Shown here: in pieces, positions 4,610 through 39,676 of the stretch
Layout: every line of letters begins with the position of its first letter
How positions within the stretch are numbered: position 1 is the stretch's first letter
Assembly (NCBI GenBank): GCA_016182295.1
Contig: JACOXP010000005.1
Location: 4,926-68,925 of the forward strand
Direction of reading: 5' to 3'
DNA: 64,000 bases
Source of the DNA: Candidatus Harrisonbacteria bacterium
GTDB lineage: Bacteria; Patescibacteriota; Minisyncoccia; UBA6257; WO2-44-18
Notes under the pieces: generated by a model
The model's input: only the letters and a program-made list of their open reading frames with translations
Databases searched by the model: none
Told to the model about the DNA's origin: nothing
Position numbers and translations under genes: made by a program

Positions 4610-6109
4610 ATGAAGCAAAACCTTCTTTGGGTAATCGCGATTTTTGTTGTTTTTGCTGCTGCTTGGCATTTTGGCAATCCCAATATCGCCGATCCGGACA
4701 GTTTCTTTTACATGGGGCTGGCTTCTTGGCATCGGGAAAGCGGAGTTTTGGCCAACGATTTTCCCTGGATATATCACTCCGTCGTTCGCGAGCTTTCCGC
4801 TTCGCTTTGGTATGGTTTTGGCGTTTTTTTAATCCCGTTTTCTTTATTAAGCATTCCTTTTTGGAGTATCAAAATCGCGGGCGTTCTTTTAACCGCGGCG
4901 GCGCTTTTTTCGATTTACTGGGTGTGTAAAAAATTCGGTTTCCGCTGGCCGGCATTCTGGCCATTCCTGGCTTTTTTTGCCGCCCCCAACTCTCTCTTTC
5001 ATTTTCTAATGGTCAGGCCGCAGACAATTTCGCTGATTTTGGCGCCCTTGTTGTTTTATTTTCTTTTACGTCGGTCGTTTTGGGGCATCGCGCTTACTTC
5101 TTTTGGCATCGTCTGGTTTCATTTTAACTTTGCCTGGCTCCCAGTTTTAATTTTTGCCGTCATTAAATTTTACTCGCTTCTTTTTGAGAAAAAAATTGTT
5201 TTAAAAGAAGGTTTGACTTTGCTGGCCGGTCTGTTGTTGGGTTGGCTTTTGCGGCCGGAACCAATCGCTGCCGCCAAGCTTTTTTATATTCAGGTCTTCC
5301 AGCAGATTTTTGAAAAATCCGGCGGTTTGCCGCTGATCTTTGGCGCGGAAAATTATCCTTTAAGCGCCGAGATTCTTTTCACCAATTTCTTGGTGTTTCT
5401 CGTTCTTTGGGTGGCCGGAACGTTTTTTATAAGCAAAACAGCGATGGAAAAAAGAATGCTGATTTTTTGCGGCTTAACCATTTCTTCCATTTTCTTTTTG
5501 ATTTCCATTATTGTGGCGAGGCGAGCATACGACTTCTGGATCATTTTCGGAGTTATTTTTCTCGCTGCCGTTTTTTCCTTCATCGAAGGCAGACAAGTTC
5601 GGCAAGCGGTAGCCTACGTGTTGGGCGGCATTCTTGTTTTTTTGATTTTATTTTCCGGCGTTAAGACCGGTATCAGTTTGGCTAACCAGGGGCACTCGCC
5701 GACAAATTTGAAAGAAGTTTCCCTTTGGCTGAAGGAGAACAGCCAACCTGGGGAAATCGTTTTTAATCTTCACTGGGCGGATTTTTCACCGCTGTTTTAT
5801 TGGAATCGCCAGAATTATTACACTTTCGGTCTCGATCCGATTTTTGCGTACGCCTATAACCCGTCGCTTTATTGGAAATTTCATTACCTTTCCATCGATC
5901 AAGTGACTAAAAAAACTTGCGGCGCTGAAGCCTGCACCCGGGAGCAATTGGAAGATACTTATGAGGTTTTGGTTCGCGATTTTAACGCTAAGTACGTATT
6001 GCTTACCAAAGATGAAAACCCAGCCGTTGATTTTTGGATTAGCGGAGATGATCGTTTTCAGAAAGTATTCGAGACGGATAACGAGAAAATTTACCTCATC
6101 CAAGAATGA
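4610..6109 (+). CDS. GT-C fold polytopic membrane glycosyltransferase (PMT/ArnT/STT3-like), paralog 1
   Basis: 499 aa, about 12 predicted TM segments followed by a ~130-aa soluble C-terminal domain. First-loop motif ADPDSFFYMGLASW (D-x-D-x-aromatic). Translationally coupled to paralog 2. Confidence 0.5.
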   Translation: MKQNLLWVIAIFVVFAAAWHFGNPNIADPDSFFYMGLASWHRESGVLANDFPWIYHSVVRELSASLWYGFGVFLIPFSLLSIPFWSIKIAGVLLTAAALFSIYWVCKKFGFRWPAFWPFLAFFAAPNSLFHFLMVRPQTISLILAPLLFYFLLRRSFWGIALTSFGIVWFHFNFAWLPVLIFAVIKFYSLLFEKKIVLKEGLTLLAGLLLGWLLRPEPIAAAKLFYIQVFQQIFEKSGGLPLIFGAENYPLSAEILFTNFLVFLVLWVAGTFFISKTAMEKRMLIFCGLTISSIFFLISIIVARRAYDFWIIFGVIFLAAVFSFIEGRQVRQAVAYVLGGILVFLILFSGVKTGISLANQGHSPTNLKEVSLWLKENSQPGEIVFNLHWADFSPLFYWNRQNYYTFGLDPIFAYAYNPSLYWKFHYLSIDQVTKKTCGAEACTREQLEDTYEVLVRDFNAKYVLLTKDENPAVDFWISGDDRFQKVFETDNEKIYLIQE

Positions 6110-7647
6110 ACAAGAAATTATTACTTTCAATTCTTGTAGTCATAGCGGTTGCCTTTGCCCTTCACGCGAGCATTCCCGGAATTCCGGATACGGACGCTTT
6201 TTATCACATTCGCCATTCCTGGCTTTACCGCGCCGGCGGTATTTTCCAATCCAGCTTCCCGTGGACTCAATATTCGGTCATCAACCAATACTCCGCGGAT
6301 ATCTGGTACGGATTTCATATTTTAATAATCCCCTTCACGTTTTTTAGCGATCTTATCAAGGGAATGACAACCGGCGGATTTGCGGTAAATTTGGCGGCGG
6401 TTTTTCTGGTCTTCGCCGCTTTATCAAGGTTAAAAGTAAAATGGCCGCTTTTTTGGACTTTTCTTTTCTGGTTCGCTTCGGCTGATGTTTTATTCCGCTT
6501 GACGATGTTGCGCCCTCACCCGCTTTCGATGGGGCTTAGTTTGATTATTTTTGCTTACTTAGCCACGCCGAGAACCAAGTATACTTTGCCGATTATCTTT
6601 TTTTCCGCGGCGACTATTTCGTGGATACACCTTTCTCTTTCCTGGCTGCCGATTTTGGTTGGCCTTGCTGTCGCCGGTGTCGCCATTCTAAAAAAGGAAA
6701 TTCAGCCGATAAAAAACGCGCTTCTCATAATCCCCGGAATTTTATTGGGGTGGGTTCTGCGTCCCAATTTTTTAGGAGCGGCAAAGATTGCTTATATTCA
6801 GGTTGTCCAGCTTGTCGTGGAGAAACAGTTTGGCGCCGAGTTTCTTCGCTTTGGCCGAGAGTTGCGCCCGTTCGTCTTTGAAAACTTCGCCGATCAATTG
6901 GTGCCGATTTCTGTTTTAATGACGCTGGGAATTTGCCTGATTTTCTGGAAAGTTTTTTTAAAAAAAATTAAAACCGCGACGGCTACTTGGGCCAGTCTGG
7001 GATTGGCGGTTTTGTTTTTCACGCTGGCTTTTACTTTGGCTCGGCGCGCCAACGATATTTTTATCGGTTTTGCCGCGATTTTTCTGGGGCTATTATTCAC
7101 GGAATTATTTATGGAAAAACGTCTGTTTACGGCAAAGTGGGTAATGCCGGTATTGACCACGACCGTTGCCATCATTTTAGTAGCGATGCCGATTAAAAAT
7201 ATTTATCGTTTCGGAACTTACCTTCAAAATGTTTTCGATCCGCAAAGATTTAGCGAGGCTTCCAAATGGCTGATTAAAAATTCCCAGCCGGGCGAAATCG
7301 TGTTCAGTCCGAATTGGGATCGTTTTGGGCCGCTGTTTTTCTGGAATTGGCAAAATTATTACATCAACGGCATGGATCCCATTTTTGAATTTGCTTACGA
7401 TCAATCGCTTTATTGGAAAACTCATTTTCTTTCCGTTGATCAAGGAGCCGCGATCACTTGCGGTATGGTTCGTTGCAGAGCTGGCGAAGCCGAGGACACA
7501 CATTTGGTTCTGAAACGAGATTTCAAAGCGTCATACATCATAGTTGAAAAAACGCGCAGTCCGAGGTTATATGAATATGTGGCAAAAACTGATGGTTTTA
7601 AGAAGGTCTTTGAAACTGTTTCGGAAGGAGTGTTTAAAATATTATGA
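6106..7647 (+). CDS. GT-C fold polytopic membrane glycosyltransferase, paralog 2
   Basis: 513 aa; same architecture. First-loop motif IPDTDAFYHIRHSW. The C-terminal domain motif NSQPGEIVF...W.RFGPLF.WNWQNYY is shared with paralog 1. Confidence 0.5.
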   Translation: MNKKLLLSILVVIAVAFALHASIPGIPDTDAFYHIRHSWLYRAGGIFQSSFPWTQYSVINQYSADIWYGFHILIIPFTFFSDLIKGMTTGGFAVNLAAVFLVFAALSRLKVKWPLFWTFLFWFASADVLFRLTMLRPHPLSMGLSLIIFAYLATPRTKYTLPIIFFSAATISWIHLSLSWLPILVGLAVAGVAILKKEIQPIKNALLIIPGILLGWVLRPNFLGAAKIAYIQVVQLVVEKQFGAEFLRFGRELRPFVFENFADQLVPISVLMTLGICLIFWKVFLKKIKTATATWASLGLAVLFFTLAFTLARRANDIFIGFAAIFLGLLFTELFMEKRLFTAKWVMPVLTTTVAIILVAMPIKNIYRFGTYLQNVFDPQRFSEASKWLIKNSQPGEIVFSPNWDRFGPLFFWNWQNYYINGMDPIFEFAYDQSLYWKTHFLSVDQGAAITCGMVRCRAGEAEDTHLVLKRDFKASYIIVEKTRSPRLYEYVAKTDGFKKVFETVSEGVFKIL

Positions 7648-8330
7648 ACAATAAATTATCAGTAGTGATTCCAACTTTTAACGAAATAAAAACACTGCCA
7701 TCCGTAATTGAAAAGGTGTTAGCTCAGAAACCGGCGGAAATTATCATTGTGGATGATTGTTCGACTGATGATACTTGGAAATTTCTTTCCAATTTGAAAA
7801 ATAAGTCAATTAAAACCTTTCGACACAAAGAAAATTCTGGAAAAGGAGCAGCCGTTCGTACTGGTATACAAAAAGCCACCGGGACAATTCTTATTATTCA
7901 GGATGCCGACTTAGAGTACGATCCTTCAGAATACGCCAAAGTATTAAAGCCAATTTTAGATGATAGGGCCGATGTTGTTTATGGGTCGCGTTTTGTAGGT
8001 CCGGAACCGCATCGAATTCATTATTTTTGGAATTTTGTTGGTAATCGTTTTTTAACAACGTTGACAAACTTGTTTGCCAATCTCAATTTATCAGATATGG
8101 AAACTGGCTGTAAGGCGTTTCGTAAGGAAGTGTTTGACTCAATAAATCTCACCGAAAACGATTTTGGGTTCGAACCGGAAGTAACCATTAAGCTTGCCAA
8201 ACAAGGTTACCGTTTTTATGAAGTCGGAATTTCCTATCACGGCCGCAGTTATAAAGAAGGCAAAAAAATCCGTTGGACCGACGGCGTTAAAGCTGTTTGG
8301 GTTATAGTAAAACACGGTCTTTTCTCGTAA
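7644..8330 (+). CDS. GT2 polyprenol-phosphate (dolichol-phosphate mannose synthase-like) glycosyltransferase
   Basis: 228 aa; VVIPTFNE, IIVDDCSTD, DADLEYDP motifs typical of Dpm1/GtrB-like GT2. 4-nt overlap with the upstream GT-C gene. Confidence 0.8.
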   Translation: MNNKLSVVIPTFNEIKTLPSVIEKVLAQKPAEIIIVDDCSTDDTWKFLSNLKNKSIKTFRHKENSGKGAAVRTGIQKATGTILIIQDADLEYDPSEYAKVLKPILDDRADVVYGSRFVGPEPHRIHYFWNFVGNRFLTTLTNLFANLNLSDMETGCKAFRKEVFDSINLTENDFGFEPEVTIKLAKQGYRFYEVGISYHGRSYKEGKKIRWTDGVKAVWVIVKHGLFS

Positions 8331-8334
8331 TAAA

Positions 8335-8367
8335 ATCCCCCGATTACTTTGCCGGGGGATCTTTTTT
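8335..8367 (+). terminator. Rho-independent terminator after the GT2 gene
   Basis: atcccccg...cgggggat hairpin followed by tttttt. Confidence 0.6.
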
Positions 8368-8499
8368 GTTCTGGTTTTTTGCTTGAGCAATTTGAAGCGA
8401 CCAGTAAATAAATATAGCAATGATGCAAAGCGTGAAAACAACTCTTAGGGTCAGCCCATCCATGCCCGATTCCTTAAAAAGTGCCGAGGTTATTATAAC

Positions 8500-8532
8500 A
8501 AAAACCCGCCCTCTTTTGGAGGGCGGGTTTTT
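8500..8532. terminator. Bidirectional intrinsic terminator (A5-cccgccctc-tttt-gagggcggg-T5), likely terminating rnpB on the minus strand
   Basis: Perfect 9-bp GC stem flanked by an A-run and a T-run, 30 nt downstream (minus strand) of the rnpB 3' end. Confidence 0.5.
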
Positions 8533-8565
8533 GACGCCCTCCGTCGCATTAAGCGGCGGAGGGCA

Positions 8566-28038: not shown

Positions 28039-28917
28039 TTAATTATAATAAATTTTTAATTTTAGTCCATCAAAGATTGCTTTAATCGTCCCATTTAAAT
28101 CGGTTCGGAAAATCTGCGAGCCGACATCGGCTAGTCGATTCAAGGCGGCGTTTGTTGGGTGGCCATAGCTATTTTTACCGACGCCAATTACAGAAATTGA
28201 CGGGTTAACACCGCGTAAAAATTCGTTATTACTGGAATATTTCGATCCGTGATGCGCCACCTTTAAGATTTGCGCTGAAAGATCGTATTTACGGGCAAGT
28301 TGATTTTCAACGTCAAAACCGATATCGGCGGTATAAAGCGCCCGTAAGCCGCCCCGCTCTAAAAGCAAAACAATCCCAGAATCATTTATCGCTTTCTCTG
28401 GAGAAGGCGTTCTGCTTGGAGACAGGACTGAAATAACGGCAGTTTCATAAACAATTTTATCACCTTCACGCGAAATAAGCGTTTTGATTTCTTTCTCCTT
28501 CACTATCTTTTCAAAGTCACCCCAAGCGGTAGCTTTTCCGGAGCGGCCGTTAGTAATCACCGCGCCAACCTCATAAGTGCGTAGAACGTCAATTAATCCG
28601 CCAAAATGGTCAAAATCCGGATGAGTAACGATAATCAAGTCAATATAACGATCTTGCGGCGCCAGAGCTTTCGCGAGCTCCGTTAAAACTTTGGGGCTTC
28701 TCCCGCCGTCAATTAAAATTTGGACATCCCCGGGCAAATTAATCATCTGGCTGTCTCCCTGACCAACGTCAAAAAACCAAAGCTCTAAATTCTCTGCGCC
28801 ATTATTGAACAAAATCACGTACCAAATAAACCCATTCGTCGCCGCCAGAATTAATAAGCTTGAATAAAAATATTGATTGTTCTTCATATAACAACACTTG
28901 TAGGGCCGATCGGCCAT
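28039..28917 (-). CDS. comEC: ComEC/Rec2 C-terminal metallo-beta-lactamase domain protein
   Basis: 292 aa; HPDFDHFGG and VAHHGS MBL motifs; N-terminal TM. Confidence 0.7.
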   Translation of the reverse strand: MADRPYKCCYMKNNQYFYSSLLILAATNGFIWYVILFNNGAENLELWFFDVGQGDSQMINLPGDVQILIDGGRSPKVLTELAKALAPQDRYIDLIIVTHPDFDHFGGLIDVLRTYEVGAVITNGRSGKATAWGDFEKIVKEKEIKTLISREGDKIVYETAVISVLSPSRTPSPEKAINDSGIVLLLERGGLRALYTADIGFDVENQLARKYDLSAQILKVAHHGSKYSSNNEFLRGVNPSISVIGVGKNSYGHPTNAALNRLADVGSQIFRTDLNGTIKAIFDGLKLKIYYN

Positions 28918-28929
28918 TGAGGTGTAATA

Positions 28930-30264
28930 TTATAGAAATTGGATTATTTTTGCAAAAAGATTTATAACTCCTAATTCGTAACCAAGGAAGATGCTGGTTG
29001 GAAAACTCAATAACCAGGATAGATGATATGAGATGGCGGCGGAGAAGGCGGTGAAAAATCCGAGGGTCATAGTAATTGGAACAAATTCTAAGACCAAAAT
29101 ATTAGTTATTAAACTCATTGGAGAAAAATAACCGAAGTGATAAAGCGCCAGTGGCAAAACGGCAACTTGGGCTGAAGTAGTTGTTAAAAAATGCTCGCGC
29201 CAGTTAAAAATTCCCGGTTTTTCGGTAAATTTCAGCCATTTTTGCAAATAAGGCCTAAAATAACTGATTCCCAAAAGCGCGGCGAAAGAAAGTTGAAATC
29301 CAATGTCGAAAACAAGGACTTTTGGATTCAAGATCACCATAACAAGAGCCGCGGCGGCGATAGCATTTCGAAGGTAATATATCCGCTTGAATTGGTCGGC
29401 AAATAGCAAAATCATCGCCATAATTGCCGCTCGCACAACTGAAGCCTCGGCTCCAGTCATAATGACAAAACTTAAGATAAATAAAATACTGATAAGCAAC
29501 CGCCATTTTTTAGTAAACCACCAAAGGCCCAGAATCGCCCCCAAACTTACCGTAATAACAGTAATATTGTATCCGGACAGAGCGACCAGATGCGTTGTTC
29601 CCGTAAGGCGCATGTTTTCCTTGAATTCGTCGGAAAACTCAGCTGTGGAGCCGAGCGTTAGACCGGAAAGAAACGCCGCTTTTTCAAGAGGTAAAACTTT
29701 CCGATAGCTTTCTTCAAAATATTCTTTAACGCTAAAGAGAGCCGCTTTAATCGGCGATCCCTGATTTTTAGCGATAAGTTCGATTTTGGGGAAACTCACC
29801 AGACCGGCAATCCCTTCTTTAGAAAAATACCCTTGCCATTCCGGATTAATTTTTTCAATAATGCCTTCAACTTGAACCCGATCGCCATAATCAAATTTTG
29901 GATACCGACCGGCGGTAATTTGCAGACGTTCGGCGCTTTCGATAACCAACTTTTGGCTATTAAGCCGTTGTTCAGCCTCGACAATTATTCCGGTAATTTT
30001 CACTTTCTGCCCGAAAGGAACATCCCCGGGATTATTCATTACGTCAAAAATAAAGTAATACCCCGCGCCCAAAAACATTACCAAAACAATGAACACCGCT
30101 CCGTAGGGCAGCGTTTGACGATAAAAGAAAGCAATCGAAAAAATTAATAGAATTACGACGGTTGTGATGAAGCGCGCTTGTTCAAAACCGATCGCGATAC
30201 TCGCGATAAAAACGCCTGCCAGAAAAAAGCAGGTCGTCCAAAAGAAAATTTCGTGTAACTTCAC
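28930..30264 (-). CDS. comEC: ComEC/Rec2 competence membrane channel domain (DUF4131 + competence domain)
   Basis: 444 aa; polytopic; OB-like DUF4131 N-terminal region, then a multi-TM competence domain. Confidence 0.7.
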   Translation of the reverse strand: MKLHEIFFWTTCFFLAGVFIASIAIGFEQARFITTVVILLIFSIAFFYRQTLPYGAVFIVLVMFLGAGYYFIFDVMNNPGDVPFGQKVKITGIIVEAEQRLNSQKLVIESAERLQITAGRYPKFDYGDRVQVEGIIEKINPEWQGYFSKEGIAGLVSFPKIELIAKNQGSPIKAALFSVKEYFEESYRKVLPLEKAAFLSGLTLGSTAEFSDEFKENMRLTGTTHLVALSGYNITVITVSLGAILGLWWFTKKWRLLISILFILSFVIMTGAEASVVRAAIMAMILLFADQFKRIYYLRNAIAAAALVMVILNPKVLVFDIGFQLSFAALLGISYFRPYLQKWLKFTEKPGIFNWREHFLTTTSAQVAVLPLALYHFGYFSPMSLITNILVLEFVPITMTLGFFTAFSAAISYHLSWLLSFPTSIFLGYELGVINLFAKIIQFL

Positions 30265-32228: not shown

Positions 32229-33698
32229 TTATTCCTGTTTTTCTTTGTGAAGCGATTCGTTAATCGCTTTTTTTAATTCATCCACGTTTATTTTAGCTTT
32301 TGGTTTTTCAAAACGTGGACGTTCCGGGCGCGGCTGATCGAATTTCGGGCGTAAAACCTCCTCCATCGGCCGTTCATTTCTCCTAAGACGTTTTTCTTGC
32401 ATTACTTCCCCAACGGTCGGTTGCCACTCCTCGGCGATTTTTTTGGCAACAACTGATACCGGCGTGGCGTAATGCCGCCTGGTGTAATCTATAATTTCTT
32501 CACGACTTGACGCGGTAGGCGGCGTTAACGGCCCAATACCCACCGCGGAAAACGGACGCGAAGAAACGCCGTCAATCATCAATTTAATGTAACAATGAGC
32601 TTTTGGCAGGTTGACGATATCTTGAATGACAAATTCCGGCATTAATTCTTTTTCCAGAAATTCGGCGTCTTCCGCGCCGACCCGGAAAGTTACCAAGGTG
32701 CCGACGTTGCCGAAAACCGCGTCGCGCACCTTGGTATTAAATTCATGGATAAGTTGCCTGATATATTGGTGAGCTAAGATCAAACATAAACGGTATTTTC
32801 TGGCCTCTGACAAAATATTAGCAAAGGAATCGGTCGCGAAATTCTGAAATTCGTCAACGTAAAGATAAAAATCTTTACGGTCTCTCTCCGGAAGGTCTAC
32901 CCGGGACATTGCCGCCAGCTGGAGTCGAGTGATAATCATTGACCCAAGTAAAGCGGAGTTGTCTTCGCCAATTTTACCTTTAGATAAATTAAAAATAAGT
33001 ATTTTTTGATCATCCATCGCTTTGCGCAAATTCAAAGCGGAGCGCGATTGGCCTAAAATATTTCTTACTAACGGGTTAGCGACGAATTGGCCGATTTTGT
33101 TTTGAATGGCGGCGGTCGCTTCGGTTTCGAATTTCTGCGCGTAGCGGGCAAATTCATTAACCCAAAAACCTTTAATAACGGGATCTTGCAGTCGATCTAC
33201 CAATCCTTTTCTATACTCTTTATCGGATAATAACCGCATTACTCCCAAAATAGTTGAATCGGGGAATTCTAATAAAGTTAATAAAGCGTTATTTAAAATA
33301 TATTCCATTCTCGCGGACCAAACATCCGGCCAGATCTTTTTAAAAACACCCATCAAGCCGGAAGCTATTAAATGGCGGAATTCACCCCCCACTTTTTCTA
33401 ATGGGTTGAAAGCTATCGGGTGATTAATATCGGCAGGGTCAAAATAAACCGTATCTTTCACCCTTTCCGGCGGTATAAAATCGAGAATTTTATCGGCAAG
33501 ATCGCCGTGAGGGTCAACCACCGCCACCCCGTGGCCGGCTTTAATATCGGCAACTATCATATTCTCCAGCATCGTTGTTTTACCCATGCCGGTTTTACCG
33601 ATCAGATACATATGTCGGCGACGATCGTCGATTTTAATGCCGAATTTTTTGCTTTGTCCTCGGAAACTAACTAGTCCGAAATAATTTACATCAGCCAT
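32229..33698 (-). CDS. P-loop NTPase of the VirD4/TraG/HerA (FtsK-HerA superfamily, AAA_10/DUF87-like) type
   Basis: 489 aa; Walker A GKTGMGKTT, Walker B YLYVDEFQNF, sensor LILAHQ; Lys/Arg/Glu/Pro-rich C-terminal tail. Confidence 0.55.
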   Translation of the reverse strand: MADVNYFGLVSFRGQSKKFGIKIDDRRRHMYLIGKTGMGKTTMLENMIVADIKAGHGVAVVDPHGDLADKILDFIPPERVKDTVYFDPADINHPIAFNPLEKVGGEFRHLIASGLMGVFKKIWPDVWSARMEYILNNALLTLLEFPDSTILGVMRLLSDKEYRKGLVDRLQDPVIKGFWVNEFARYAQKFETEATAAIQNKIGQFVANPLVRNILGQSRSALNLRKAMDDQKILIFNLSKGKIGEDNSALLGSMIITRLQLAAMSRVDLPERDRKDFYLYVDEFQNFATDSFANILSEARKYRLCLILAHQYIRQLIHEFNTKVRDAVFGNVGTLVTFRVGAEDAEFLEKELMPEFVIQDIVNLPKAHCYIKLMIDGVSSRPFSAVGIGPLTPPTASSREEIIDYTRRHYATPVSVVAKKIAEEWQPTVGEVMQEKRLRRNERPMEEVLRPKFDQPRPERPRFEKPKAKINVDELKKAINESLHKEKQE

Positions 33699-33699
33699 A

Positions 33700-34947
33700 T
33701 TATTCTACCGGCAATCCCGCTGGCGGCTCGCCCTTCTTTGCCCCCAAACGCCTCAAAAGCGGCGCTTCGACTACCAGTGACGGGAAATGATATATGGTGG
33801 CCAATTCTTCAACGTTTAAAACGGAAGTTTTTCTCGGCCAATACATTCTCCGATAAGATTCAAAAAGTCGCCTTTTTCTAAACCAAAGCCGGCGTTGCTT
33901 TAAAAGTTTAAGGTTGCCGCGCACAATCGTCATGGTTTTAATATTCGGACGAAACCCGTTGAGGTCTTGAGTGGTGAACTGATGAAAAGTAGACATCACC
34001 GCCGCGATATTAGAACGGGTAAAACTGTTGCGCTTATCTATATAGAGAAAACGAATATTGGTTTTAAAACCGAGTCGGCTGATTTTTTTCTCAATCGCTT
34101 CCACAGCGCTTAACTCCCCTTTAGTCATGTGGAAAAGAAGGCTTTGCGCCTCCCTTTCTTCTTTCTTGGATTCCTCCCAAACAGGATGTTGCCCAGCGGC
34201 AAAGATCAAATTTTTAACGAATTCCCAAACAGCGTCGAAAAAATTTTTCGGGGCCGCTTTTTTACGCCCGATCAATTTATCACGAAGGGCTTCGCCTTCT
34301 TTTTTCCACGCGTCGTCAGTTGGGCTGACCATTATTTGAATCCAAATCGCTTCGTCATTTTTCAGTTTAGACATCACCTCTGTGATAGCGGCAATAGGAT
34401 CTAAGCGCTTTTCTTCCTGGGCGTTTTCAAAATGTTCATAAGTCTGAATTGGATATGGATTCGCTTTTATCAGGTGATAATCTGTTCCCCAAACATCGTA
34501 AACCTTGTTTGGCAATGTTTTGGGCATTAAATTCATGTAATCTTCCGCTTCGTGAACTTCCGCGTCTGGATATTGGGCGTAAATAGCCGATTCAAGGATA
34601 TCCCGCCATTGGGCGGGGGTGCGGACATAAAAATGAACCCCGCCGGCAAATCCAACAAGCTCAAAGGCCACCCAATCCTCGAATAAACGGCCCTCTAGAT
34701 ATTTTTCAAAAAGTTTGAAACCAAAAGAATAAATTCCATAAACAGCGGAAAAAATCTGCTCCATCGCCTTGGGAGTTTTTTCAATACCGGCCGGAATTTT
34801 AATTTCCAAAAGCACCCACTTTATGCTTCGGAGATATTTTATAAAGACGTGATACTTCCAAAATTTCCAAAAAACGAACATTAAGGCAAGCGGCAATACA
34901 ATCCACCAAACCGCCGCGAAAACCGAGATAACGCTATTTAAAATCAC
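33700..34947 (-). CDS. Membrane-anchored hypothetical protein, partner of the upstream ATPase
   Basis: 415 aa; one or two N-terminal TM helices then a large soluble domain; 1-nt gap to the ATPase gene suggests translational coupling. Confidence 0.35.
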   Translation of the reverse strand: MILNSVISVFAAVWWIVLPLALMFVFWKFWKYHVFIKYLRSIKWVLLEIKIPAGIEKTPKAMEQIFSAVYGIYSFGFKLFEKYLEGRLFEDWVAFELVGFAGGVHFYVRTPAQWRDILESAIYAQYPDAEVHEAEDYMNLMPKTLPNKVYDVWGTDYHLIKANPYPIQTYEHFENAQEEKRLDPIAAITEVMSKLKNDEAIWIQIMVSPTDDAWKKEGEALRDKLIGRKKAAPKNFFDAVWEFVKNLIFAAGQHPVWEESKKEEREAQSLLFHMTKGELSAVEAIEKKISRLGFKTNIRFLYIDKRNSFTRSNIAAVMSTFHQFTTQDLNGFRPNIKTMTIVRGNLKLLKQRRLWFRKRRLFESYRRMYWPRKTSVLNVEELATIYHFPSLVVEAPLLRRLGAKKGEPPAGLPVE

Positions 34948-34954
34948 TAGTTAA

Positions 34955-35950
34955 TTATACCAAAGTGGTATAACGGCCGTCACCAAGACGTTTAAAATGC
35001 TTTCGGTTCTGAAGATTGATTAAAATAGTGTTTTCTTTAAAGATTCTCTGCTTCATAACTAAATTAATAACTTCCCGAGAAGAAAGCGGACCGTCCTTTT
35101 TCAAAAAGTGAGAGATAAGTTCTTTAGCGGTCCCCGCGACAACGCCAAACTCGCTTAAAGTATAGGTGCCCTTTCCAACCAAAACAAACTTTTTATCTTT
35201 GATCAGCTCGTTGTGGATAGTCGGAGCGTGGGTTTTTTTACCCCGAATTTCAGAGACTAATCTGGCGATTTCCGTAAAATGCAGAGGGCGCTTTTCTTTC
35301 TTCAAAATTAAATAGGCCCAATCTCGGGCGGTTTTCGGGTTAATTTCCGTCCATTCGGCAAGGCCAATACTGCCATAAACATTGGTAGTGATATTTTTGG
35401 AAATAGACGCGTAATTGCGGGCAACGCCGTCGCTCACCCCGGAATTTCTGGCGGCGGCTACAAAGGTGGTGGAAAAGTCGTCACGATCGGCGTTTTTTAG
35501 AACGTAGGAAACAAAAGATAAGGCTTTTTTCTTTCCATCGTCACCGATGTGCCAAAAAGCGTGAGTGTCTTTCCCGTCGTTGGCATATTGAAAAGAATCG
35601 CAGATTTCAAGTAAAAACTTAACTCGATTTTGAGCGTTAGCTCCGGCCAATTCTTCTATCAGCAAATCCTCGCGCTTGGTTCCGCCGGAATTTTTTAAAA
35701 TTTCATTGACGGCTTTTTTGAATCCGGAAAATTCATCGCCATTGGCGTTGGTTTTAGCTACTTTAATAGCGGTGGATTCGATTTGACGAATTCGTTCGCG
35801 GGTTAAGCTGTATTTTGATCCTAATTCAGCAAGGGTCAGGGATTCAGTTTTACCAAGACCATACCGCCCTTCCAAAACTTCTTTTTGACGAGAAGTCAGC
35901 CCGGTTAAGCAGGTTTTGATCAGCGAATTGATTTTGTTGTTATCCAACAT
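34955..35950 (-). CDS. DNA-binding protein with N-terminal sigma-70 region-4-like HTH and C-terminal HARE-HTH-like domain
   Basis: 331 aa; TSRQKEVLEGRYGL...TLAELGSKYSLTRERIRQIESTAI resembles sigma70 region 4; C-terminal FTEIARLV...HNELIKDKKFVLVGKGTYTLSEFG resembles the HARE-HTH of RpoE delta. Confidence 0.4.
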   Translation of the reverse strand: MLDNNKINSLIKTCLTGLTSRQKEVLEGRYGLGKTESLTLAELGSKYSLTRERIRQIESTAIKVAKTNANGDEFSGFKKAVNEILKNSGGTKREDLLIEELAGANAQNRVKFLLEICDSFQYANDGKDTHAFWHIGDDGKKKALSFVSYVLKNADRDDFSTTFVAAARNSGVSDGVARNYASISKNITTNVYGSIGLAEWTEINPKTARDWAYLILKKEKRPLHFTEIARLVSEIRGKKTHAPTIHNELIKDKKFVLVGKGTYTLSEFGVVAGTAKELISHFLKKDGPLSSREVINLVMKQRIFKENTILINLQNRKHFKRLGDGRYTTLV

Positions 35951-35972: not shown

Positions 35973-36833
35973 TTAACGCCAGATTGTCAACAATGGGCTG
36001 GCAAGAAAAATCGATGAGTAAGTGCCGACCAAAGTACCCGCTAAAATCACTATCAAAAAGTTTTGCAGGTTAACTGGCCCAAAAAACAGGAGGGCGATGA
36101 TCGCGATAACCAGAGTTAAGGATGTATTAATGGATCGGGAAAGAGTTTGATTTACGCTCGCGTTGACTAAGTTGTTAAAATCCCCAGCCCCTTTGGAATT
36201 TTTAATATTTTCCCTAATACGATCAAAAACAACAATTGTGTCATGAACAGAGAACCCCATTACTACCAAAATAGCTACGACAAAATTAGTATCTATTTCG
36301 GCTCCGATGAAATAACCGAGCAGAGCGAAAAGCCCCGCTGGTATAACAGCGTCGTGGAATAAAGTCACCAAAGCGATAATCCCATATTTCCAAGAACTAA
36401 CCGGCTTTGAAACCTTGCGAAAAGCGAAAGCCACATAAATGGAAATCAACGCCAATACCAAACCAAAAGCCCAAATCGCCTTTCGACGAAGTTCATTTCC
36501 GATCACCGGGCCTATATTCTGAAATTGCAATTCTTCCAATTCTCCCACTGAACGAAATTCCGACAATAGCGATTCTTTTGCGGCTTCATCAAGCTCTTTA
36601 AGCCGAATCAAAAAGACGCCATTTTCTTGAGGAATGACCGTTCCTTCGCTCGCAATAACCGCCAACCTTTCCTGAGACGGCGCTTCTCCGAAGAATTTTA
36701 TTTGCCAGGCAACGCCGCCGGCAAAATCTATTCCCGGTTTAAGGCCAAAGAACAGGATGCTCGCCAAGCTGGCTAACGCGAGAAGCGCTGATAAGGTTAT
36801 AAAAATATGTTTTTTGCCGATAATGTTAAGCAT
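35973..36833 (-). CDS. secF: Protein translocase subunit SecF
   Basis: 286 aa; six TM segments; follows secD with an 8-nt overlap. Confidence 0.85.
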   Translation of the reverse strand: MLNIIGKKHIFITLSALLALASLASILFFGLKPGIDFAGGVAWQIKFFGEAPSQERLAVIASEGTVIPQENGVFLIRLKELDEAAKESLLSEFRSVGELEELQFQNIGPVIGNELRRKAIWAFGLVLALISIYVAFAFRKVSKPVSSWKYGIIALVTLFHDAVIPAGLFALLGYFIGAEIDTNFVVAILVVMGFSVHDTIVVFDRIRENIKNSKGAGDFNNLVNASVNQTLSRSINTSLTLVIAIIALLFFGPVNLQNFLIVILAGTLVGTYSSIFLASPLLTIWR

Positions 36834-38073
36834 GATTTTTAATAAATAGTCGTAACATTACTCTGGTAACCGTAATCGCGCTGAACATGCTGATAAGAAC
36901 GCCGATTAAAAGCGCTAACGCGAATCCTCTCACGAAACTGGACGTCAAATAGTAAAGAATGACCGATGTGATAATAGTAGTGATGTTGGAATCGCGAATG
37001 GACGGCCAGGCGCGTTTGAATCCTTCCTCTAGGGAGGTCGCCAAACTAATGCCTTTCGCTATTTCTTCTTTGGAGCGAGCGAAAATCAAAATGTTGGCAT
37101 CCACCGCCATGCCAATCGACAATATAAATCCGGCTATTCCGGCCAAAGTCATCGTAATTCCAAAAAGCTTAAAAACAGAAACTGTAAAAATAACATAAAA
37201 GATTAAGGCCAAAGCGGCGACGTATCCCAAGCGGCGATAATAAATAATCATAAAAAGAATAATAGCCAGCGTTCCCAATGCTCCGGCAGTGATAGCTTTA
37301 TTCAAAGAGTCAGTCCCCAAAGTCGCGCCAATGGTCTGCTCGCTAATTATATGGATTGGGGCCGGAAGAGCGCCGGCATTAAGCAACTGGGCCAATCGCT
37401 TCGCTTCGTTAAAATCGAAACCGCCGGAAATTTGAGCGTTGCCACTGGGGATTTTTTCTTGCACTACCGGCATTGAAATTAATTCATCATCAAGAAAAAT
37501 AGCCAGGGGTTCGCCCACATTTTTTTCCGTAAGTTCGGAAAAAATCGCGCCGCCTTCGCTGTTAAATTGAATGGAAATAACCGGTTCGTTTGTGGTCGGA
37601 TTGGTTGTTACCACGGCGCGCTGGAGATATTTTCCAGTCAAAGTGGTCTTTTTAAAATCCAGTTGCGCCTCTTCTCCCTCACCGATCGCTTCAACTTCTC
37701 GAAAATCAAGCAAAGCCGTGCGGCCAATCAGGCGAATTGCTTCGGCGGTGTCTTTAATCCCAGCCAATTCCACTATGATTTGGTGGGAATCCCCCTGAAC
37801 AGCGGTAGTTACCCTGGGTTCGCTGACGCCGAAAACATTTACCCGCCTTTCCATCACGTCGCGCAGTCCGGCTAAAACAGAGTCCTGGTCCGCCGGAGCC
37901 ACTTCCGACATATCAACTTCATAAATTAAGTAGCTTCCACCCACCAGATCTAGGCCAAGACGCCAAGGCAAAACAATGCCACCAAGCCCTTTTGGATAAA
38001 CAAAAAACGCGGCTCCGACAAACAGGAAAGCAATTAGAAGAAAAAGAAGTAAATTTTTCGTTGCGGAATTCAT
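36826..38073 (-). CDS. secD: Protein translocase subunit SecD
   Basis: 415 aa; N-terminal TM, periplasmic domain, C-terminal six-TM bundle. Confidence 0.85.
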   Translation of the reverse strand: MNSATKNLLLFLLIAFLFVGAAFFVYPKGLGGIVLPWRLGLDLVGGSYLIYEVDMSEVAPADQDSVLAGLRDVMERRVNVFGVSEPRVTTAVQGDSHQIIVELAGIKDTAEAIRLIGRTALLDFREVEAIGEGEEAQLDFKKTTLTGKYLQRAVVTTNPTTNEPVISIQFNSEGGAIFSELTEKNVGEPLAIFLDDELISMPVVQEKIPSGNAQISGGFDFNEAKRLAQLLNAGALPAPIHIISEQTIGATLGTDSLNKAITAGALGTLAIILFMIIYYRRLGYVAALALIFYVIFTVSVFKLFGITMTLAGIAGFILSIGMAVDANILIFARSKEEIAKGISLATSLEEGFKRAWPSIRDSNITTIITSVILYYLTSSFVRGFALALLIGVLISMFSAITVTRVMLRLFIKNHA

Positions 38074-38140
38074 TAATGAATTACTGAAAAATTGCTTTTA
38101 ACTATAATATTAAAAAATGGTTTTGACAATGCGTATAAAA

Positions 38141-39602: not shown

Positions 39603-39676
39603 TGGTGCCCCCACATGGAATCGAACCATGGTCAACTGCTTAAAAGGCAGCTGCTTTACCATTAAGCTATGGGGGC
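39603..39676 (-). tRNA. tRNA-Lys (anticodon TTT), CCA encoded
   Basis: Minus strand gccccca/tgggggc acceptor, anticodon stem gctgc/gcagt with loop ctTTTaa, T-arm catgg-ttcgatt-ccatg, 3' acca. Confidence 0.85.

Follow-up and report, generated by a model that had tools for sequence, protein, structure and literature searches.

VirB4, represented by TrwK of R388 and by the C-terminal domain (CTD) of the T. pseudethanolicus protein (PDB 4AG5), combines a VirB4-specific N-terminal domain (NTD) with a following RecA-like ATPase, and its membrane attachment lies at the N-terminal end, as in VirB3-VirB4. The type IV coupling proteins (T4CPs), among them TrwB, VirD4, TraD and the CD1115-type TrsK and PcfC, carry a helical insertion in the ATPase domain, and their genes often lie far from virB4. 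A separate gene for the N-terminal part of VirB4, directly 5' of the ATPase gene, is found in TrsD/TrsE of pSK41/pGO1 and in TrsD-VirB4 pairs of Patescibacteria, where TrsD, which resembles that part of VirB4, is commonly encoded beside virB4 (PMC12102498). In the same 2025 survey, VirB4 was present in 2,417 (80%) and relaxases in 103 of 3,035 Patescibacteria genomes, while VirD4-type T4CP homologues occurred in 2,918 (96%) as 5,713 genes, 148 of them near virB4; its authors suggested exaptation of the T4CP for another function (PMC12102498). Here we analyse two adjacent genes in a 64,000-nucleotide stretch of a Candidatus Harrisonbacteria genome (contig JACOXP010000005.1; hereafter the window), which encode a 415-residue membrane protein of Pfam family DUF8128 (PF26449) and a 489-residue P-loop ATPase (Table 1).

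On balance, we regard the DUF8128 protein and the ATPase as the two halves of one VirB4/VirD4-family motor, parted by gene fission. Their family proper is the uncharacterised phrog_5156/DUF8128-ATPase group; the pair would work as a VirB4/T4CP motor does, yet belongs to neither the T4CPs nor VirB4. An original prediction, made from the letters of the window, had described most of the parts accurately: the Walker A, Walker B and LILAHQ motifs of the ATPase, which vary little or not at all among 30 homologues; its charged, proline-rich tail; the 1-nt gap between the two open reading frames (ORFs); an N-terminal membrane segment in the 415-residue protein; an upstream protein with sigma-region-4 and HARE-HTH domains; and a comEC gene split into two ORFs about 2 kb from the ATPase. 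It was right on the adjacency of the two genes and wrong on their order, as both lie on the minus strand and the membrane protein is therefore upstream of the ATPase, not downstream. It missed the predicted VirB4-N-domain-like character of the partner, and the reading of the two genes as parts of a single protein.

Fused relatives and a probable gene fission

Both proteins match a single 824-position profile of the PHROGs collection, phrog_5156 (function unknown), and do so colinearly, the DUF8128 protein at positions 76-355 (E 3.2e-17) and the ATPase at 406-806 (E 7.6e-61). Profile alignment with hhalign recovered the same order within single phage proteins: on gp156 of Bacillus phage G (825 residues) the DUF8128 profile falls on residues 30-321 (98%, E 1e-13) and the ATPase profile on 373-782 (99.9%), and on SPO1 gp27.4 (906 residues) they fall on 23-305 (70%) and 419-796 (98.7%), respectively. 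These phage proteins belong to the same family and carry xELxxxxHxP before the ATPase; they differ from the window proteins, to which they are about 25-28% identical, in being fused, in lacking the N-terminal membrane helix, and in lying within phage or plasmid-like modules beside VirB4-like, Replic_Relax or actin-like partition genes.

A cellular case of fusion came from a 31.6% GC assembly (L093, GCA_037141395.1), where one frame of 826 codons (6065-8545 in code 25), ten of them in-frame TGA, runs from a transmembrane (TM) segment through DUF8128 (34-393) to the ATPase (393-821). One in-frame TGA aligns to the invariant Gly203, which implies that the genome uses UGA=Gly, the code of lineages of the Gracilibacteria/Absconditabacteria type. 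Two more sequences, a second contig (L092) and a fragment from IMG/VR (L088), hold an in-frame DUF8128-ATPase junction. The L088 junction, ...EELATIYHFP...PAQIPTEGLYLGMSTYRG...RHMYIIGKTGTGKS, is colinear with ...EELATIYHFP...PAGLPVE* / MADVNYFGLVSFRG...RHMYLIGKTGMGKT of the window, and the segment KKGEPPAGLPVE of the window has its colinear counterpart in PAPAQIPTEG of the fused L088 ORF; the fission point thus lies in the inter-domain linker. In the window it reads GTA GAA TAA T ATG, with a spacer of 1 nt. Homology searching from the L088 junction gave nothing but short fragments, which are UGA-recoded genes chopped by code-11 calling. In public protein catalogues, the fused gene of such recoded lineages appears only in pieces of 85-253 residues, because genes were called with code 11. 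The L092 frame is broken even in code 25, probably by long-read indel errors. L088 (IMGVR_UViG_3300009537_000513) is a chimeric 'viral' contig, of which the first ~470 bp (36-42% GC) bear the junction and the remainder (~60% GC) bears phage tail-like genes.

Southlakia epibionticum SEML1_0293 is 921 residues long, and its ATPase domain sets in around residue 361-402 (supplementary tables, Wang et al. 2023), and by this length and domain position is probably a fused form as well. The split of a VirB4-type N-domain from its ATPase has precedent, since TrsD is encoded beside virB4. TrsD itself differs from DUF8128 in having no detectable sequence relation to it, in its size (227 residues) and in its location inside clusters for type IV secretion systems (T4SSs); unlike TrsE, the ATPase of the pair is not a VirB4 orthologue.

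The DUF8128 membrane protein

The PF26449 assignment is precomputed on the 100%-identical protein P0001 and on all 120 listed homologues. The family exceeds 2,048 clusters at 90% identity; a profile search found 3,305 cluster representatives at 50% identity, 1,053 of them below 1e-30, and the best 150 of the 3,305 are all 270-551 residues long. A literature search for 'DUF8128' found no paper in the library searched. Scans against NCBIfam and a Pfam version without PF26449 gave no known relative of the protein, and PADLOC gave no match. Hydropathy identifies one N-terminal hydrophobic segment, and one TM-like segment is present in 33 of 38 homologues, across which lysine plus arginine beside the helix average 0.32 in the N-flank against 2.32 in the C-flank. 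By the positive-inside rule, the globular part of the protein should therefore be cytoplasmic.

The AlphaFold model of the protein (predicted local distance difference test, pLDDT, 84; predicted template modelling score, pTM, 0.80; residues 396-415 disordered) was compared with known structures by Foldseek, and TrwK chains made up the top 14 matches (probability 0.90-1.00). As the protein has no P-loop, and no RecA-like P-loop fold is among its matches, the match to TrwK is presumably to the VirB4-specific NTD; on this model, DUF8128 would have a VirB4-NTD-like fold. A much weaker likeness, for which homology is not established, was seen to EccE of mycobacterial type VII systems (ESX-3, ESX-5), which has two TM helices and belongs to another system with other partners. 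Towards the end of the domain, E380, E381, L382, A383, T384, H387 and P389 of the EELATIYHFP motif are invariant in the homologue alignment, and fused relatives have counterparts in KELSSIIHIP (L093) and VQEMSQFIHLP (phage G gp156). P409, L412 and P413 of the following linker are invariant too.

The ATPase

A protein with 100% identity to the ATPase occurs in a 'Candidatus Harrisonbacteria' metagenome-assembled genome. The ATPase scores above the Pfam gathering cut-offs for TrwB_AAD_bind (57.3 bits), TraG-D_C (36.6), T4SS-DNA_transf (30.2) and DUF87 (28.3), and below that for FtsK_SpoIIIE (12.5 bits, cut-off 24). No cut-off of a curated NCBIfam model is reached: the best models, SXT_TraD (54.8/366) and the Gram-positive VirD4-like CD1115 (41/250, aligned over residues 22-346), are missed widely, as are TraD_Ftype (31/521) and the VirB4 model TIGR00929 (11.8 bits, cut-off 643), and CD1110 and CagE_TrbE_VirB are not matched. 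By hhalign, the ATPase profile aligns over 302 columns with the T4CP TrsK and over about 40 with the VirB4 TrsE, the alignments with TrsE and with the VirB4-like gp155 of phage G being confined to the surroundings of the P-loop. Comparison of the predicted fold ranks the VirB4 CTD of T. pseudethanolicus first (27.3, 328 of 374 residues aligned), followed by the DndH C-domain (26.0), TrwB (22.4), DotL (20.6), Cag-beta (19.5) and HerA (19.1), with lower scores for EccC (about 16), TcpA (15.2) and FtsK (14.6). Because the ATPase profile aligns along its length with TrsK, and given the fold scores of the VirB4 CTD and TrwB, we place the ATPase in the VirB4/VirD4 clade of the FtsK-HerA superfamily, in line with the original prediction; it is T4CP-like by sequence and, as modelled, at least as VirB4-like by fold.

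Among 30 aligned homologues, G34, K35, G37 and K40 of Walker A are invariant, as are D282, E283, F284, Q285, N286 and F287 of Walker B, which aligns to that of TrwB, and E298, A299, R300, K301, Y302, H310 and Q311 beyond it, which align to the RK...Q stretch of TrwB. In the model, strands 83-86 and 233-237 enclose an insertion at ~105-229 that is wholly helical. It may correspond to the all-alpha domain of T4CPs; the VirB4 CTD, which has a different helical insert, outscores TrwB. Hydropathy finds no hydrophobic or transmembrane segment in the 489 residues. The last 95 residues contain 22 K/R, 18 D/E and 8 P; in the model the chain is disordered at ~428-470 (pLDDT < 50) and then forms a helix at 472-487. 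Across the homologues this tail is Pro/charge-rich and of varying length, and retains a short conserved helix, KKKV[DN][IL]x[DE]L[RK]xA[LI]xxSL. The tails of TraD and DotL, likewise long and disordered, carry comparable docking peptides.

The pair as a unit thus has features of both known families. Its modelled order of a VirB4-NTD-like domain and then a RecA-like ATPase, with membrane attachment at the N-terminal end, is that of VirB4, from which it departs in lacking sequence membership, in an ATPase that aligns more fully with T4CPs, in having two genes and a TM helix of its own, and in not being encoded with VirB3, VirB6 and VirB8. With the T4CPs it shares the best sequence matches of the ATPase, the disordered tail with its docking-type motif, the frequent distance from virB4 and perhaps the helical insertion. 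It is unlike them in that the ATPase chain has no TM domain, the sole helix being on the separate upstream protein; in the predicted VirB4-NTD-like domain, for which we know of no T4CP counterpart; in its lack of a relaxase or T4SS neighbourhood; in the widely missed curated cut-offs; and in the dispensability of its Southlakia counterpart.

Conservation and gene order

A scan of one genome per species yielded at least 595 loci, of which 80 were kept for analysis of gene order, from Paceibacteria- and ABY1-type lineages including Magasanik-, Uhr-, Kerfeld-, Morani-, Wolfe-, Lipton-, Yanofsky-, Sung-, Nealson- and Niyogibacteria. The ATPase gene lies directly 3' of the DUF8128 gene, on the same strand, in 71 of the 77 loci with room downstream. 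Together with the natural fusions, this conservation of the membrane partner favours the original prediction, which had named its absence as grounds for refutation. The spacer has a median of 17 nt over 77 pairs and is at most 10 nt, overlaps included, in 26; no fusion was seen in the 77. A gene for a protein with sigma-70 region 4 and HARE-HTH domains (SigHARE) is directly 5' of DUF8128 in 65 of 76 loci, and of 55 testable loci, 42 have secF on the same strand within 2.6 kb 5' of DUF8128. On the 3' side, efp, mnmA and comEC vary in position and orientation between loci, which argues that the SigHARE-DUF8128-ATPase triad is more than inherited gene order. No T4SS virB4 or relaxase was found by gene order in the 15-kb loci.

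Compared with the window proteins, homologues have median identities of 60.8% (ATPase), 62% (AspRS), 58% (EF-P), 51.7% (SecD), 38% (DUF8128) and 35% (SigHARE). The pair is a chromosomal core unit, vertically inherited in much of Patescibacteria. Six contigs with the order secDF-SigHARE-DUF8128-ATPase (L054, L056, L071, L075, L079 and L084) are deposited as Gammaproteobacteria, Binatia or Acutalibacteraceae, names that are likely due to mis-binning or generic naming; two of the six are 63-65% GC.

Homologues of the ATPase were also found in 353 plasmid records and 53 Bacillus phage records, and a search of 2.9 million viral contigs found one fragment only, the chimeric L088. In the jumbo phage G (L089, 90859-93336) the VirB4-like gp155 (NCBIfam CD1110, 174 bits) directly precedes the fused gp156, and in SPO1-like phages (L090, SPO1 gp27.4) the fused protein has an Alp7A-like actin partition protein on one side and a Replic_Relax nickase on the other. 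This is a plasmid-like module carried by lytic phages. On two Bacillaceae megaplasmids (L095 of Pontibacillus sp., NZ_CP062975.1, 4998-7455; Priestia megaterium NZ_CP045273.1) an ATPase homologue comes after a DUF8128-like gene; by tblastn it matches in three pieces over 2.4 kb with an unannotated gap, which may be an intein or other insertion, or the mark of a pseudogene. A functional tie to the sigma-like gene beside the Pontibacillus homologue was considered and rejected, this gene being a standard r2+r4 sigma factor with no relation to SigHARE.

SigHARE and published genetics in Southlakia

The SigHARE protein of the window matches Pfam Sigma70_r4 at 46.8 bits and HARE-HTH at 24.5 bits, just below the cut-off of 25.9. 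Its counterpart with the same domains in Southlakia, SEML1_0294 (annotated 'RpoS'), is encoded directly 5' of SEML1_0293, and the linkage of SigHARE to the motor therefore reaches Saccharimonadia. SigHARE, itself uncharacterised, may act on RNA polymerase as a factor specific to the phylum, or may bind DNA as a partner of the motor. In transposon insertion sequencing (Tn-seq) of Southlakia, SEML1_0294 was essential; reads in SEML1_0293, which was non-essential, fell over passages from 5817 to 2940 to 1372, with neighbours flat (PMC10633639). The T4SS cluster of this organism was essential, and the authors saw no coupling protein in it; FtsK was complete (4TM, alpha, beta, gamma) and essential, and comEC and dprA were non-essential (PMC10633639). 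An obligatory role of the motor in the T4SS is thus argued against, as SEML1_0293 is dispensable where the T4SS is essential. A second T4CP-like paralogue, SEML1_0142 (1,019 residues, 'TraM recognition domain', P-loop at 381-800), was essential (PMC10633639), and the presence of both agrees with the reported phylum-wide figure of about two T4CP homologues in each genome. The N-terminal region of SEML1_0142, about 380 residues, is of uncharacterised nature, and its gene is preceded by that of an essential 139-residue hypothetical protein, SEML1_0141.

Proposed mechanism and alternative explanations

If the separate chains come together in the arrangement of the fused proteins, the ATPase would, by analogy with VirB4 and TrwB, presumably form a hexameric ring at the inner face of the membrane. 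The DUF8128 helices would tether this ring, with the VirB4-NTD-like domain between membrane and ring, and the conserved helix in the disordered ATPase tail may dock a partner. ATP hydrolysis would then push a polymer into a membrane conduit, or hand it over. As cargo we favour nucleic acid, handled in the manner of a coupling protein, because of the T4CP-like contexts of the fused relatives in phage G and SPO1 and the plasmid-borne members; this is the least secure step of the scheme. The motor may serve the monoderm-type type IV apparatus of the phylum or another conduit, and the Tn-seq result for SEML1_0293 suggests an accessory, conditionally needed role in preference to an obligatory core one. 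In its widest form, the proposal is that the DUF8128-ATPase unit constitutes a third, so far unrecognised branch of the VirB4/VirD4 clade, with a VirB4 N-domain and a coupling-protein-like motor, domesticated phylum-wide as a chromosomal machine that is co-expressed with the essential SigHARE and moves nucleic acid at or across the membrane independently of conjugation; we put this forward tentatively, and consider it rather improbable as a whole.

Several observations weigh against these proposals. The likeness of DUF8128 to VirB4 is structural only and rests on a predicted model: hmmsearch of the DUF8128 profile matched no PDB sequence up to E 10, and hhalign against TrsD, TrsE, PrgJ and phage G gp155 gave no relation. 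The split form is sampled in Paceibacteria- and ABY1-type lineages only, and the N-terminal part of SEML1_0293 is known from tables, not from a comparison of sequence. In six of the 77 loci (L076, L084, L071, L032, L045 and L082) DUF8128 has no ATPase downstream although the contigs continue; these may be paralogous copies or rearranged genomes. The pair almost never adjoins virB4, and SEML1_0293 was non-essential in Tn-seq while the T4SS genes were essential (PMC10633639).

A possible explanation, if in our judgement an unlikely one, is that the pair is the true T4CP of a Patescibacteria T4SS encoded elsewhere in the genome, required for substrate transfer, with DUF8128 replacing the T4CP transmembrane domain and its VirB4-NTD-like domain docking to VirB3/VirB6/VirB8-type parts or to VirB4. 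The T4CP Pfam families above cut-off are consistent with this, as are the T4SS clusters of the phylum without a recognisable coupling protein, the frequent distance of T4CP genes from virB4, the VirB4-like gene and the relaxase-type nickase adjoining the fused homologues of phage G and SPO1, and the near-universality of both VirB4 and T4CP homologues. It is harder to reconcile with the opposite Tn-seq outcomes for SEML1_0293 and the Southlakia T4SS, the 148 of 5,713 T4CP homologues near virB4, conserved neighbours that are SigHARE and secDF in place of T4SS genes, the near absence of relaxases from the phylum, and the failure of the ATPase to reach any curated NCBIfam T4CP cut-off. We think it improbable that the pair is instead a cytoplasmic motor for nucleic-acid uptake through ComEC, with a ComFA-like role that would aid nucleotide-auxotrophic cells. 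T4CP-type motors such as TrwB, like FtsK, are DNA pumps; comEC is 2 kb off in the window, the link to which the original prediction had drawn attention; comEC and SEML1_0293 are both dispensable in Southlakia co-culture, with dprA five genes away; and no ComFA or ComEA is named in the Southlakia genome tables. Yet just 8 of the fetched loci, mostly of close relatives, have comEC within 7 kb, a synteny far weaker than that of SigHARE or secDF and too weak for comEC to be retained as the main clue; the roughly 4-fold fall in SEML1_0293 reads over passages, against flat comEC, indicates that the phenotypes differ; and no known competence system pairs a VirB4/VirD4-type motor with ComEC.

The remaining explanations are far less probable. 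Replacement of FtsK as septal chromosome pump is suggested by the pairing of a membrane-anchored FtsK-HerA-superfamily ATPase with a winged-helix DNA-binding protein next door, and is very improbable given the low FtsK_SpoIIIE score; for Saccharimonadia it is refuted by the complete, essential FtsK that Southlakia has alongside the non-essential SEML1_0293. That the pair is what decay has left of a conjugative element, an option of the original prediction, or of a mobilisable element or prophage would be in keeping with the plasmid and phage records of ATPase homologues and the plasmid-like modules of the fused relatives. We regard it as extremely improbable and largely refuted, as the ATPase is as conserved across lineages as AspRS and EF-P, and more so than SecD; its catalytic motifs are invariant and undamaged; it is flanked by housekeeping genes in conserved order; the window shows no integrase, relaxase or repeat boundary and an unremarkable base composition; and the viral contigs yielded a single, chimeric fragment. 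Scarcely more can be said for a HerA-type anti-phage defence or DNA-end-processing module, also raised by that prediction and equally disfavoured. The DUF87 match and PADLOC hits of the ATPase to mad8 (50 bits) and, weakly, to HerA and DndH point that way; the HerA and DndH matches, however, span short parts of the ATPase, the partner has no PADLOC match, no nuclease, Sir2, DUF4297 or NurA partner is present, and the pair is near-universal, single-locus and syntenic, unlike defence islands.

Layout of the locus and other features of the window

The two genes close a tight five-gene string on the minus strand that begins with secD (Table 1). The DUF8128 gene starts with GTG, the earliest possible start past an in-frame TAA. 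A promoter-like site just 5' of secD may be the operon promoter, for which a consensus match is weak evidence. On the 3' side of the ATPase gene follow efp (convergent), mnmA and the two-ORF comEC, a two-part pattern that tblastn also found in several related loci. Other genes of the window are of the housekeeping kind (LepA, DnaB, CysRS, AspRS, DnaJ). No relaxase or VirB4 was present among the window proteins scanned against Pfam, in agreement with the original prediction that relaxase and T4SS parts are absent here, and neither the DUF8128 gene nor the ATPase gene has a paralogue within the window. Rfam and tRNA scans of the window gave five tRNAs only. The segment 38084-39600, between tRNA-Lys (39603-39676) and secD, has a GC content of 0.48 against ~0.43 elsewhere and holds overlapping ORFs of 163 and 211 residues without Pfam or Rfam match; it may be a small insertion adjoining the tRNA. 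Two adjacent overlapping ORFs at 4610-6109 (+) and 6106-7647 (+), of 499 and 513 residues, have no Pfam match at E <= 0.001.

Table 1. Features of the secD-to-ATPase gene string and of comEC, in window coordinates.
Feature	Coordinates	Strand	Remarks
secD	36826..38073	-	first of tight five-gene string; 8-nt overlap with secF; Pfam SecDF_P1_head, SecD_1st, SecD_SecF_C
secF	35973..36833	-	Pfam SecD_SecF_C, 179.8 bits; 22-nt gap to SigHARE gene
SigHARE (331 aa, sigma-70 region 4 + HARE-HTH)	34955..35950	-	7-nt gap to DUF8128 gene
DUF8128 (PF26449) protein, 415 aa, N-terminal half of proposed split motor	33700..34947	-	
DUF8128 transmembrane helix (residues 2-30; hydrophobic segment 1-30)	34858..34944	-	hydropathy; N-out/C-in predicted
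EELATIYHFP motif, end of DUF8128 domain	33781..33810	-	homologue alignment
DUF8128 C-terminal linker KKGEPPAGLPVE	33703..33738	-	corresponds to inter-domain linker of fused relatives
Junction TAA-T-ATG, proposed fission point	33696..33702	-	direct reading
Soluble VirB4-CTD/T4CP-like P-loop ATPase, 489 aa, C-terminal half of proposed split motor	32229..33698	-	
Walker A GKTGMGKTT, residues 34-42	33573..33599	-	
Walker B FYLYVDEFQNF, residues 277-287	32838..32870	-	
EARKYR (residues 298-303) and LILAHQ (306-311)	32766..32807	-	candidate arginine finger and sensor glutamine; LILAHQ alone 32766..32783
Tail helix motif KKKV[DN][IL]x[DE]L[RK]xA[LI]xxSL (here KAKINVDELKKAINESLHK)	32244..32300	-	candidate partner-docking peptide
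Promoter-like site TTGTCA-17-TATAGT just 5' of secD	38101..38129	-	consensus scan, 10/12 matches
comEC	28039..30264	-	DUF4131 + Competence domain 28930..30264; metallo-beta-lactamase domain 28039..28917; 12 nt apart

Significance

The ATPase annotation, the orphan T4CP homologues of the phylum and the DUF8128 entry in Pfam were already known. New, as far as our searches show, are the VirB4-NTD-like fold proposed for DUF8128, the evidence that DUF8128 and the orphan T4CP make up a single protein, with separate genes in some classes and a fused one in others, and the conserved SigHARE-DUF8128-ATPase unit. Patescibacteria perhaps make up a large share of bacterial diversity and are host-dependent, and in the one genetically tractable species the T4SS is essential. 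Within this phylum, the orphan VirD4-like genes would gain a defined anatomy, comprising a DUF8128 membrane subunit, fused or split, behind an essential SigHARE gene, and a domain of unknown function gains a structural hypothesis. As SEML1_0293 can be disrupted in Southlakia, simple experiments on the motor are possible. More broadly, the DUF8128-ATPase unit is a possible intermediate form in the long-discussed relationship between VirB4 and the coupling proteins and, if it does represent a third branch of their clade, could take part in acquiring host DNA or RNA for nucleotide-auxotrophic epibionts.

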